A stretch of DNA of 58,611 nucleotides. Origin: Candidatus Magasanikiibacteriota bacterium (GTDB lineage: Bacteria > Patescibacteriota > Patescibacteriia > Magasanikbacterales > UBA922). Each line of letters begins with the position of its first letter. Within the stretch, counting starts at the first letter, position 1. The stretch covers positions 1-58,611 of the forward strand of contig JBDROX010000028.1 in assembly GCA_043809645.1 (NCBI GenBank). The letters run 5' to 3'. Shown here piece after piece: positions 43,921 through 48,135 of this stretch. Both the position numbers and the translations under genes were made by a program. The notes beneath the pieces were generated by a model. That model made no database searches and was not told the DNA's origin. It saw only the letters and a program-made list of their open reading frames with translations.

Positions 43921-43949
43921 TTGACAAAATTGATACATTCTGATATAGT
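43921..43949 (+). promoter_or_regulatory. Near-consensus sigma70 promoter (TTGACA-17 nt-TATAGT) facing the DGR locus
   Basis: The -35 is at 43921-43926 and the -10 at 43944-43949, with a 17-nt spacer. Confidence 0.6.
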
Positions 43950-44115
43950 ACTCAGTCATATTTCAGCTTTCTTTTTGTCTTGTTTTAGCGAAAAAGATAG
44001 AAAGAAGGCTGGGAATATCTCCTGGCTAATGTTGCTCGCGAAGTTAAATCTCTTGTCGGTGTCTACAGGGTGCAGATGCTCATAGAGTGTGCTCGCGGGT
44101 GAAGGAGGACTTGCA

Positions 44116-44718
44116 GTGAGCAAGCCAACATCAAGACAGATGAAGGAGTTCTGGAGCCAGGTCGACGCAGGCCGGATAACTTCGGCCAACTTTCAGGCTT
44201 TCCTGGACAACCCCAACGTGGAAGTCGCCAAGCTGGCCGAATCAACGGTCTGGAAGACCATCGCGCTCGGCACTGGCCCGAAGAGCGGCAAGGCTTACGC
44301 CAAGGCGCTCAAGAAGGCTGGTTGTCGCGTCAGCGACTGGGCTCTCGACATGCTCAATCATGACGAGTTCAAGGTCTCTGAGGGAATGGAGATCGATCTC
44401 GTTTTCCTCTCCGGCTACGACCTCGGCTTCGCTGTGAGTGCTACGCGAGTTCAGATCTACGAGGCCGGTTTGGCTCAGGGCTACGAGCTTTGTCCGCCCG
44501 AGGTCGGTCCAGCGCTGCGACTGCAGTACAAGGATCAGTCAGCCGGCGAGTGGCTGTTCGTGGCGATGGAGTCGATCTCCGACTCGGAGGGCTACCCGGC
44601 CGTGTTCCACGTTGGGTACTATGGCAGTGAGTTGTGGCTGAACAGCAACTACGGCAATCCTGACAATGTCTGGAATTCGAACAACCGTTGGGTCTTCGTC
44701 CGTCCTCGCAAATCTCTT
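44116..44718 (+). CDS. GC-rich ORF encoding a about 200-aa protein whose C-terminus resembles a DGR (C-type-lectin-fold) variable region; no in-frame stop codon
   Basis: GTG at 44116 lies 7 nt after GAAGGAGG. G/C-rich third codon positions contrast with the AT-rich host. The C-terminus reads GYYGSELWLNSNYGNPDNVWNSNNRWVFVRPRK. The frame then runs on through AT-rich DNA to 46095, so the given end coordinate is where the GC-rich part stops. Confidence 0.6.
44600..44709 (+). other. DGR template-repeat-like or naive variable-repeat-like tract (AAY-codon rich)
   Basis: AAC AGC AAC TAC GGC AAT CCT GAC AAT GTC TGG AAT TCG AAC AAC has 7 AAY codons in 15, followed by the invariant-looking CGT TGG GTC TTC GTC CGT. 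Confidence 0.5.
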
Positions 44719-44722
44719 CATT

Positions 44723-44752
44723 CCCCGATTTTTTTGTCGGGGTTTTCTTTCT
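44723..44752 (+). terminator. GC hairpin CCCCGA-8 nt-TCGGGG followed by a T-rich tract (terminator and/or DGR target-site hairpin)
   Basis: Read directly. It sits 13 nt after the end of the GC-rich tract, between the convergent GC-rich ORF and avd. Confidence 0.5.
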
Positions 44753-45104
44753 ACCTTCTTATCCATCCCCCAAGCATTCGTCCGACCTCTTGTAATTTTT
44801 TTGAGATTTCCATATATTTTTTATTTCCTATCATGTCTATTTCCCACAAGAGTTGTACAAAGAATTTTAGAGAGTCAAACTTCGTATTTAGCACTTTCAG
44901 TTTTTCGGGTGTTTTATCTTTTGGTGCGTACTGTGCTTCAAGTGCACAGGCGAGACAGTCGGTAAATAATGCATCAATTTTTGCACCAAGGGTGTGGCGA
45001 GAGAATTTTGGAAGGTTGATCGTATATCCATGCCACACTTTATACACTTCTTTTAATGCAATAATGAGAGGTGTGCCAAAACTCCGTCGGGGGGGGGCTT
45101 TCAT
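44751..45104 (-). CDS. avd: DGR accessory variability determinant (Avd), four-helix-bundle protein
   Basis: 117 aa. The helix pattern and C-terminal ISKKLQEVGRMLGGWIRR closely resemble Bordetella bAvd (...IAEVGRILGSWIAR). It is adjacent to the DGR RT. Confidence 0.75.
   Translation of the reverse strand: MKAPPRRSFGTPLIIALKEVYKVWHGYTINLPKFSRHTLGAKIDALFTDCLACALEAQYAPKDKTPEKLKVLNTKFDSLKFFVQLLWEIDMIGNKKYMEISKKLQEVGRMLGGWIRR
45089..45097. repeat. G9/C9 homopolymer in codons 3-5 of avd, 12 nt upstream of the RT ATG
   Basis: Read directly (cgtcGGGGGGGGGcttt). It is the longest G/C homopolymer I noticed in this AT-rich window. Confidence 0.95.
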
Positions 45105-45108
45105 TGGT

Positions 45109-46095
45109 ATGAAGATTCAATTGCCGCATACGCGCAAAGATATTATCTGCCTAGAAAACTTACTTAGCGCCTGGCAGGAATTTATTATTGGAAAAAGAAA
45201 AAAGCGTGATGTGCAAGAATTTAGTTTCAACCTTATGGATAACATTGTATCACTTCATGAGGATCTAAAAAATAATACATACAGACATGGTGTCTATCAT
45301 AGTTTTTTCATCAATGATCCTAAGAGACGTCATATTCACAAAGCGCGTGTCCGCGACAGGCTTCTTCATCATGCAATTCATAGACTACTCTATCCATTCT
45401 TCGACAAAACATTTATTTCAGACTCATACTCTTGCAGAAAAAATAAAGGAACACATAAGGCTATGAATCGTTTCAGATCACTTACGTACAAAGCTAGTCA
45501 AAATCACACACGGACGTGCTGGGTGCTAAAATGTGACATTAAGAAATTTTTTGCCAGTGTTGATCAGAGTATTCTCCTTGCTATTTTAAAAAACTATATT
45601 CCTGACAAAAACATTATTTCACTTCTACAAGATATTATTACAAGTTTCAGTACTCAAGACAAACCAAACTCGGGCCTTCCTCTCGGTAATCTTACTTCAC
45701 AGCTTTTCGTCAATATGTACATGAATGAGTTTGATCAATTTATCAAACACAAATTAAAAATAAAACATTACATCAGATATGCAGATGATTTTGTTATTTT
45801 GTCAAACAGCAAGCAGTATCTTGAACATCTCATTCCACAAATTATCGACACACTCATGAAAAAACTCAAACTTACTCTTCATCCAAATAAACTATTCTTC
45901 AAAACAATTTCATTCGGAGTAGATTTTCTTGGGTGGATACAGTTTGTAGATCATAGAGTACTGCGAAAGGTAACAAAGAGAAGAATGTTTGCGAACCTTA
46001 AAAAGGACATCAGAAAAGAGGTCTTGCAATCGTATCGTGGTCTATTGGGGCATGGGAATGGATATAAACTTGAGAAGATAATTCTTGATTTGTGA
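45109..46095 (+). CDS. Diversity-generating retroelement reverse transcriptase
   Basis: RHIHKARVRDRLLHHAI, SDSYSCRKNKGTHKA, WVLKCDIKKFFASVD, GLPLGNLTSQLFVNMYMNEFD, YIRYADDFVIL and GVDFLGW. The LGNLTSQ motif and the about 330-aa size are DGR-clade hallmarks. An alternative in-frame ATG lies at 45064. Confidence 0.92.
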   Translation: MKIQLPHTRKDIICLENLLSAWQEFIIGKRKKRDVQEFSFNLMDNIVSLHEDLKNNTYRHGVYHSFFINDPKRRHIHKARVRDRLLHHAIHRLLYPFFDKTFISDSYSCRKNKGTHKAMNRFRSLTYKASQNHTRTCWVLKCDIKKFFASVDQSILLAILKNYIPDKNIISLLQDIITSFSTQDKPNSGLPLGNLTSQLFVNMYMNEFDQFIKHKLKIKHYIRYADDFVILSNSKQYLEHLIPQIIDTLMKKLKLTLHPNKLFFKTISFGVDFLGWIQFVDHRVLRKVTKRRMFANLKKDIRKEVLQSYRGLLGHGNGYKLEKIILDL

Positions 46096-47776: not shown

Positions 47777-48135
47777 TTAGTCCTTACTTTTTCTTGCTAA
47801 TTGAGATTTTATAAGTTTGTTCAATCTGATCTCAATTTCCTTTGCTAGGGTTTTTAGCATAGTAAATTCTTCTTTGCTTATTTGTTTTCTTTCAAACATG
47901 AGACTATGCCAGTGTCTTGATTCCAGAAGCGAAGCTCGTGCATTGTAATAGAATTTGTTCTTAATCCTTCGGCGATATTTACCACAACTGAATCTACACT
48001 CCGAATCATCTGATCTCCAATAATTTTTTGTTCTTTCCAATTAAGTCTTGAATAAATTTCCCAAGATTTTTTCGAATATTCTCTTGAATTCTTGTATACA
48101 TCTAACTTCGGCAGTTCAATATAGCTGGAGTTCAT
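47777..48135 (-). pseudogene. Four-helix-bundle protein (23S rRNA intervening-sequence / Avd superfamily) with a 1-nt frameshift
   Basis: The N-terminal frame (from 48135) reads ...IGDQMIRSVDSVVVNIAEG. The C-terminal frame (to 47777) reads KNKFYYNARASLLESRHW...LNKLIKS. Together they give the family pattern Q..RA..SI..NIAEG...F...A.GS..E. The break is near 47955-47965. GGGGA lies 4 nt before the ATG. Confidence 0.7.

Follow-up and report, generated by a model that had tools for sequence, protein, structure and literature searches.

A contig of 58,611 nucleotides from a Candidatus Magasanikiibacteriota bacterium (JBDROX010000028.1, positions 1 to 58,611; referred to throughout as the window) was examined for the organisation of a diversity-generating retroelement (DGR) located between positions 43921 and 46095. 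The locus is very likely a chromosomal DGR of architecture B3, the arrangement that is standard in Patescibacteria (candidate phyla radiation; CPR), in which the template repeat (TR) and the variable repeat (VR) that terminates the target gene have been merged in a single hybrid copy. The hybrid nature of that copy, judged from codon patterns in related elements, is in little doubt. As written, the locus is a collapsed cassette as opposed to a new working layout, having neither a separate VR nor the structured leader RNA that precedes the TR in its relatives. The features that carry this reading are listed below, with positions given in window coordinates.

44575-44631, plus strand: 5' half of the repeat, VR-like and already diversified; unlike the TR consensus at all 8 of its 8 hot columns
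44632-44640, plus strand: putative crossover zone, the A-poor core TTG TGG CTG that is common to VR and TR in relatives; placed by the change of pattern between columns 21 and 26
44641-44712, plus strand: 3' half of the repeat, TR-like, with AAC/AAT/GAC codons, a GC-rich end (...GTCCGTCCTCGCAAA) and no stop; TR consensus at 9/9 hot columns
44713-44752, plus strand: TR-downstream element comprising TCTCTTCATT, the hairpin CCCCGA-TTTTTTTG-TCGGGG (44723-44742; 10 nt after the tract) and TTTTCTTTCT; intrinsic-terminator-like
44751-45104, minus strand: avd, 117 aa if translated from the ATG at 45104; scores of 46.8 bits on Pfam bAvd (cut-off 40) and of 71.3 bits on NCBIfam DivGenRetAVD (cut-off 80)
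45109-46095, plus strand: DGR reverse transcriptase (RT), 328 aa, with YADD and LGNLTSQ motifs intact

Identity of the locus

An initial annotation, made from the letters of the window, had assigned the RT open reading frame (ORF) to the DGR clade on the strength of the motifs RDRLLHHAI, SDSYSCRKNKGTHKA, LPLGNLTSQLFVNMYMNEFD, YIRYADDFVIL and GVDFLGW. All of these were found, LPLGNLTSQ being the (I/L)GxxxSQ motif of the DGR clade and YADD the YxDD motif. The protein matches Pfam RVT_1, and comparison with solved structures returned as top match, over nearly the full length, a 328-aa chain named 'Reverse transcriptase' (8ub7_A; E = 1e-40), which we take to be the RT of the Bordetella phage DGR. 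The best group II intron RT structure (E = 1e-17) was 23 orders of magnitude behind. Profile searches gave 148 bits for NCBIfam group_II_RT_mat against a cut-off of 300, and scores far below the cut-offs for the retron and Drt models. A grouping with group II intron, retron or Abi RTs, which the initial annotation had named as the result that would speak against a DGR, thus finds no support in the profile scores or in the ranking of structures. The closest RT relative (P0062) is 76% identical, and relatives of 59-67% identity are flanked by adenine-biased TR/VR pairs. With a DGR-clade RT and an Avd both present, the identification of the locus as a DGR stands.

The 117-aa minus-strand ORF, the C-terminal end of which reads EVGRMLGGWIRR, had been described as an Avd look-alike, and this assignment is borne out by the Pfam bAvd score, that for NCBIfam DivGenRetAVD lying below its cut-off. 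The distance of 4 nt between its ATG at 45104 and the RT ATG at 45109 was likewise seen in the sequence, as was its inverted placement between the RT and a template-like tract that occupies the position of the TR. Two sets of relatives were compiled. An RT scan with one genome per species gave 560 relatives, and the 80 loci retained from these came almost exclusively from metagenome-assembled genomes of CPR bacteria and had RT identities of 59-67%; the second set comprised 80 metagenome loci. The avd gene lies on the minus strand directly 5' of the RT gene at 74/74 genome loci with an avd match and at 68/68 metagenome loci. The suggestion that a nested antisense-avd layout had gone undescribed fails because the arrangement, universal among relatives with an avd match, has already been published: Wu, Gingery, Abebe et al. 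(Nucleic Acids Res 2018; PMC5758913) define it as B3, TR-(avd)-RT, and assign 90% of CPR DGRs to this architecture.

The B3 elements described in that paper resemble the window in how TR-like tract, inverted avd and RT are ordered and oriented, in their CPR hosts, and in having a single adjacent upstream target with a VR of a class without a known Pfam domain. They differ from it in that the window has no separate VR and TR, a hybrid copy instead ending a target gene that has lost its stop. The leader RNA, the hairpin following the TR and the repeat within avd, all of which are described below, were found nowhere in the searchable text (PMC5758913).

The intact cassette in relatives

The cassette of the relatives runs in the order target gene with VR, approximately 330 nt containing a promoter-like site and the leader RNA, TR, terminator-like hairpin, avd (minus strand) and RT (plus strand). 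TR/VR pairs were identified with an adenine-aware ungapped score, a first local alignment having over-extended. Across all target types, pairs were obtained at 59 loci, with at least 80% of mismatches at TR adenines in 58 of these (13/19 in the remaining one, L027). The pair at locus L020, the VR of which carries indels, was missed by the ungapped search only. Fifteen relatives possess a target of the same family as that in the window, and their VR/TR pairs measure 129-145 nt; each pair has 12-25 mismatches, no more than three of which lie anywhere but at a TR adenine. VR and TR are separated in these relatives by 242-430 nt, and the end of the TR is 47-140 nt from the avd match in 14/15 (379 nt in L050). 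The TR ends with CGCAAAT and the VR with CGCAAGT in several relatives, and all VRs that were compared reach a stop codon within a few bases.

Within the VR-TR spacer of the relatives, an extended -10-like site is followed by a conserved segment that borders the TR on its 5' side. Alignment of 59 of these segments revealed a fold of three helices, with compensatory changes in 20 of the 22 predicted pairs. A covariance model constructed from this alignment (R1; approximately 140 nt modelled directly 5' of the TR, for example 6913-7053 of L002) matched 70 genome loci (64-138 bits; 11 outside the model-building set) and 56 metagenome loci (42-133 bits), giving 126 in total. No Rfam family was found in the VR-TR spacers of the relatives, leader RNA included. 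In B3 elements, the leader RNA probably forms the 5' portion of the template RNA of the DGR.

At the other end of the repeat, a hairpin with a T-run is present 2-15 nt after the end of the TR in 53/59 relatives, and after the VR in 14/59. The consensus of the post-TR hairpin is CTCTCCC...GGGAGAG TTTTGTTTT, whereas VRs are followed instead by short GC hairpins without a T-run. The ...SLHFS... sequence that follows the tract in the window is likewise present after the TR of L170, a metagenome locus considered further below, and after that of L020. A conserved motif, TC(A/T)CTTCATT, was additionally observed to precede the post-TR hairpin. The template RNA of the clade looks like a discrete unit composed of promoter, leader, TR and terminator, which argues against a long RNA that runs through the antisense avd into the RT, and suggests that the template RNA ends before the antisense avd.

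This organisation can be compared with that of the BPP-1 DGR (mtd-avd-TR-brt). The window RT is homologous over its full length to 8ub7_A (taken as bRT), Avd is a four-helix-bundle partner in both, the TR-to-VR differences (in the relatives) are adenine-specific, and the 3' end of the repeat is GC-rich. However, avd is located in the window on the other strand and overlaps the start of the RT. The conserved structured RNA of the clade lies 5' of the TR, with the terminator-like hairpin 10-15 nt after the TR, whereas the priming RNA of BPP-1 reportedly lies 3' of the TR, in the TR-brt spacer.

Two loci among the relatives depart from the general pattern in other respects. The VR and TR of L067 (2997-3138 and 3455-3596; Zambryskibacteria) have an in-frame TGA at the same column, which may indicate a decayed target or recoding. 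Locus L155 (contig Ga0182027_10254129) has an RT of the clade without avd, TR or leader upstream; GC-rich unrelated sequence adjoins the RT gene, and the locus is either degenerate or a chimeric contig.

The single repeat copy in the window

The Asn-codon-rich tract of the window, which has 7 AAY codons within 44641-44685, was compared codon by codon with the TR/VR pairs of the 15 relatives that share its target family. At the hot columns of the 5' half, A occupies codon positions 1-2 in the TRs of 14-15 of the 15 relatives, mostly within codons for Asn, Asp, Glu or Lys. The corresponding codons in the window (44587-44628) are TAC, GCC, CAC, GGG, TAT, GGC and AGT, which are departures of the A-to-N kind, and, at the eighth column, GAG for Asp. 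The hot columns of the 3' half (44641-44685) read AAC, AAC, TAC, AAT, GAC, AAT, AAT, AAC and AAC, at positions where the VRs of the relatives differ from their own TR in 8-13/15 cases. The difference between the halves, with eight departures out of eight in the first against nine agreements out of nine in the second, is significant (Fisher P=4e-5), and the chance of a VR keeping the six strongest columns unmutated is approximately 6e-5. The tract ends with CGC AAA TCT, which is of the TR type and contains no stop. Homology to the target family is unbroken to position 44718 and the avd match starts at 44754, with one repeat copy only.

Searches for the missing parts of the cassette were negative. 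An adenine-tolerant search revealed no repeat partner for 44400-44760 within the 58.6-kb window, and none for the 360 nt beside avd within 6 kb on either side; a generic repeat finder applied to the window detected no repeat at the tract. A search of the whole window with leader model R1, with filters off, returned noise only (best score 12.9 bits, E=0.63), and Rfam returned no match with E<=1 on the DGR tract, the antisense avd or the avd-RT junction, with four noise matches in the flanks of the window.

These data bear on three proposals of the initial annotation. The tract had been regarded as the template, which is upheld for its TR-like 3' half (9/9 hot columns) but not for its 5' half, which is VR-like (8/8), nor for the tract as a whole, which ends a full-length target gene. 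An adenine-biased repeat partner had been named as a mark of a DGR, and none was found for 44400-44760 within the window. A single RNA had been envisaged to run through tract, antisense avd and RT, but the terminator-like hairpin (44723-44752) lies in its path, and the TR of the relatives has its own promoter-like site and leader.

Proposed origin of the hybrid copy

In the intact form of the cassette, a promoter would drive a target gene of approximately 200 aa with a cytoplasmic-looking product, the C-terminal domain of which, probably C-type-lectin-like, would end in the VR. Some 330 nt downstream, a second promoter-like site would drive a non-coding RNA consisting of leader, 130-nt TR and terminator-like hairpin. 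By analogy with the Bordetella phage model, RT and Avd would copy the TR RNA into cDNA with misincorporation opposite adenines, and the cDNA would then replace the VR. In the window, a single crossover within the A-poor core GAG TTG TGG CTG (44629-44640) would have fused the VR's 5' half with the TR's 3' half. Such an event would have removed approximately 380-560 nt, this being the spacing from VR start to TR start in the relatives, and with it the 3' half and the hairpin of the VR, the stop codon of the target gene, the promoter of the TR, the leader RNA and the TR's 5' half. The predicted product is a target::TR fusion gene without a stop. Lacking a leader as well as a template and a target that are distinct from each other, the cassette in its present sequence is probably incapable of diversifying anything. 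Mutagenic retrohoming, the requirement for the leader and the non-functionality of the fused copy are elements of this scheme that we infer.

Several points weigh against this account. The VR-like and TR-like labels rest on relatives that are 40-50% identical in the target protein. The RT, avd and target body are intact and show no decay, which would fit a very recent deletion or an artefact. On the assembled sequence, the likelihoods of a crossover in the organism (a deletion between direct repeats) and one in the assembler are roughly even.

A second collapsed cassette was identified at positions 755-1818 of L170 (metagenome contig Ga0187893_10011855), with 60% RT identity, a different target and no leader RNA. 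There, a 222-aa target-like ORF with an Asn-rich end (...NVNRNDNDWNDLWWFAGVRNSLHFSP) and no stop reads into the TR hairpin and the 3' end of avd. Since L170 shows the same anatomy as the window, the phenomenon recurs, whether as deletion or as artefact.

Alternative readings of the locus

The strongest alternative is assembly collapse, in which the true genome would have the normal order of target-VR, leader-TR, avd and RT, and the assembler would have jumped from VR to TR at shared k-mers, the 3' half of the VR being heterogeneous and thinly covered. It falls within the hybrid reading, differing only in where the crossover happened, and is a serious contender, if one rated slightly below the balance point. 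Contigs of at least ten relatives (L012, L016, L021, L025, L045, L048, L052, L057, L062 and L080) begin no more than approximately 260 nt upstream of the leader, within or just downstream of the VR, which indicates that assembly frequently breaks down at the VR and in the spacer between VR and TR. None of the genes is disrupted, and the same pattern is seen in another assembly (L170). In the Bordetella system, markers close to the TR's 3' end are reportedly transferred most frequently, so the 3' half of the VR should be the most heterogeneous part in a population, and it is this part that has been replaced in the window. Conversely, at approximately 115 other loci the assembly runs across the two repeats as well as the leader, and the shared core at the junction is short (approximately 12-30 nt), below the k-mer sizes usually used for resolving such graphs. 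Deletion between 130-nt direct repeats lying approximately 460 nt apart is, moreover, an ordinary biological event.

The view of the initial annotation, that the locus is an intact and working DGR with 44600-44709 as TR, a VR elsewhere in the genome and a single transcript from 43921, is unlikely. The RT and avd are indeed undamaged, the tract resembles a TR in its 3' half and has a strong promoter upstream, and remote targets are known for some DGRs (Wu et al. 2018; PMC5758913). However, no partner was found for 44400-44760 in the window or for the 360 nt beside avd within 6 kb, the leader RNA present in 126 relatives is missing from the window, the 5' half of the tract is not adenine-rich at template positions, and a terminator-like hairpin intervenes between tract and avd.

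Less likely still is a self-templating DGR with a single repeat, in which the target mRNA would serve as template and the cDNA would return to the same copy. One repeat copy, a strong promoter and a 3' element of the TR type are what such a system would present, but in a repeat without a protected master copy the adenines would be lost. The 3' half of the tract keeps all the expected adenines and the 5' half has lost them, which indicates two different histories. The leader is absent, and the sole other locus found with this layout, L170, is from an unrelated lineage and has a different target; with no clade found to share it, the layout looks sporadic as opposed to inherited. Finally, the least probable reading is that the tract is an ordinary undiversified VR with its TR outside the window. 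The tract does form the in-frame end of a full-length target gene, but has no stop codon, is followed by a hairpin of the TR type in place of the short GC hairpin found after VRs, sits in the TR position beside avd, and retains all six of the strongest Asn columns (chance approximately 6e-5).

The target gene

The upstream part of the hybrid gene and its predicted expression signals are as follows.

43921-43949, plus strand: sigma-70-like promoter of the target gene, TTGACA-17-TATAGT, TG-extended; 11/12 consensus matches
44101-44118, plus strand: Shine-Dalgarno sequence GAAGGAGGA (44101-44109) and likely GTG start (44116) of the target gene; start predicted from sequence
44116-44574, plus strand: body of the target (variable-protein) gene; 59% GC, 75% GC at third codon positions (GC3); member of a Patescibacteria family of approximately 200 aa without a Pfam domain

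The near-consensus promoter-like site that had been proposed at 43921-43949 is present in the sequence, with 11 of 12 positions matching, and a similar site (TTGACA-17-TATTAT) is located 5' of the homologous target gene of L002. The protein gene is full length (44116-44712), with the Asn-codon-rich tract as its 3' end, and lies in a GC-rich island (44050-44720; 58-63% GC, against approximately 40% in the surroundings). Homologues of the target protein (n=61; approximately 200 aa; E down to 2e-45) are from Patescibacteria wherever the source is named, and their variable columns coincide with the Asn codons of the window, which places the gene in a DGR target family. The homologues mostly end in ...WVFVRPRK, followed directly or after a few residues by a stop; a stop codon is present within 0-4 residues of the (R/K)PRK end in 13/16 aligned homologues. 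The target gene of the window has no stop after RPRK, and its frame remains open to the stop codon of the RT, creating a 668-aa ORF (44089-46095).

The possibility that this 668-aa frame, comprising target, antisense avd and RT, represents a true fusion or overlapping gene was considered and rejected. The RT frame is open across avd at only 2/75 loci (the window and L011), and any plus-strand frame at 3/75, and the ORF was thus treated as a chance occurrence.

A sequence search of solved structures returned no match for the target protein, or for Avd. An AlphaFold model of the target (pLDDT 90) was compared with the Protein Data Bank by Foldseek, and the top matches were nearly all C-type lectin domains, with weak scores (E 0.1-1, TM 0.3-0.46). 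A C-type-lectin-like fold for the C-terminal domain of the target is suggested by these model-based matches, although it is not established.

The base composition of the target gene is distinctive in most relatives also (L002, L011, L013, L019, L040, L067 and others), where the gene, VR and body alike, is 10-23 GC points above avd, RT and the remainder of the locus; within the window, GC3 is 75% for the target gene against 34% for the RT. Depletion of adenines by the DGR was rejected as the cause of this GC richness, since A and T are equally low in the target gene and adenine mutagenesis does not explain such a pattern.

The avd/RT junction

Two further features were recognised where avd and the RT gene meet.

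45089-45097: G9 simple-sequence repeat (C9 on the avd strand) in avd codons 3-6; the only G or C run of at least 7 in 58.6 kb
45127-45129, minus strand: ATG complementary to the CAT of RT codon 7, the clade-conserved avd start; shifted by one base from the avd frame across G9 in the window

Among the relatives, a poly-G run of 7-14 is present at the same place in 65/78 genome loci; six others have a dinucleotide repeat instead, either (GA)n, (CT)n or (GT)n, and the metagenome locus L170 has (AGCC)8. The His codon at RT residue 7 is CAT in 66/66 genome and 68/68 metagenome loci (134/134), despite other His codons in the same RTs being CAT in approximately 60% of cases; the chances of an all-CAT column at codon 7 are 1e-14 and 1e-16, respectively. 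Since CAT is ATG on the opposite strand, and the frame from this ATG is open to the repeat in 110/113 loci, it is read as a conserved avd start, with avd and the RT gene overlapping head to head by 21 nt.

The conserved ATG is in frame with avd across the repeat in 22/110 loci (9/59 genome loci and 13/51 metagenome loci), whereas it is in frame in 7/7 loci that have the conserved ATG but no repeat (Fisher P=3e-5 against loci with a repeat). Tests for depletion of the in-frame state gave P=0.0015 for the genome set and P=0.15 for the metagenome set; the in-frame state, at approximately 20%, is not enriched, and a firm depletion is not claimed. In the window, the ATG at 45104 is in frame and gives rise to the 117-aa ORF, but is specific to the lineage. 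Proximal ATGs just upstream of the C-run were rejected as a general avd start, being in frame no more often than expected by chance in a hand tally.

Variation in repeat length within lineages was not observed. Five near-identical contigs of one lineage, from five samples, all had G10 and were all out of frame, and six contigs of another, including the closed genome CP066687, all had G10 and were in frame; the constancy of G10 within two lineages counts against fast switching at the DNA level. An exact 22-mer beside the G-run of the window had no match in metagenome contigs. The repeat may act through slippage of polymerase or ribosome on the C-run, through phase variation visible only in reads, or through plain low expression. 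It is conceivable, although our confidence falls short of even, that production of Avd in the clade, and hence mutagenic retrohoming, is gated by the repeat, of which G9 in the window is one instance, with the conserved ATG followed by poly-C or by (CA)n, (CT)n, (GA)n or (AGCC)n. If so, slippage (of DNA, RNA polymerase or the ribosome) would be needed in approximately 80% of genomes to reach the Avd frame, and diversification would be stochastic or attenuated.

A search of full-text literature returned nothing relevant that links DGRs with homopolymers, phase variation, slippage or frameshifting. The arrangement does have parallels in contingency loci, in which a homopolymer, dinucleotide or tetranucleotide repeat stands a few codons after a conserved start, its unit and length vary between lineages, and the frame is mostly scrambled. 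Examples of such loci include poly-C in the Bordetella fim promoters, poly-G in Campylobacter genes and tetranucleotide repeats in genes of Haemophilus influenzae. The avd repeat differs from these in showing no length polymorphism among the five and six near-identical contigs of the two lineages, and in that the gene under control is an accessory factor of mutagenesis as opposed to a surface antigen.

A further gene of Avd-related type was noted 1.7 kb from the RT gene. At 47777-48135 (minus strand), a frameshift divides a four-helix-bundle gene, named '23S rRNA intervening sequence protein' and related to Avd, into two ORFs of 85 and 87 aa that overlap; short inverted repeats lie on either side of the gene.

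Biological significance

The locus in the window is in itself one more CPR DGR of the published B3 layout, collapsed and probably either non-functional or mis-assembled. Loci of this kind have consequences for annotation, in that DGR finders that need a TR/VR pair will miss collapsed loci, and gene callers can mistake the target::TR fusion for a single protein of 668 aa that joins target and RT. A real deletion would represent a simple route to the death of a DGR, by recombination between its own repeats, and L170 suggests that this route is taken recurrently.

The main value of the analysis comes from the relatives, with their covarying leader RNA 5' of the TR, a terminator after the TR, an antisense avd start within the RT gene and a repeat that scrambles the avd frame. 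Leader, terminator and repeat make it testable how DGRs with an inverted avd build their template RNA, and whether a self-mutagenic system is throttled by the cell. If true, a repeat-gated avd together with the leader RNA would define the organisation and control of B3 DGRs.

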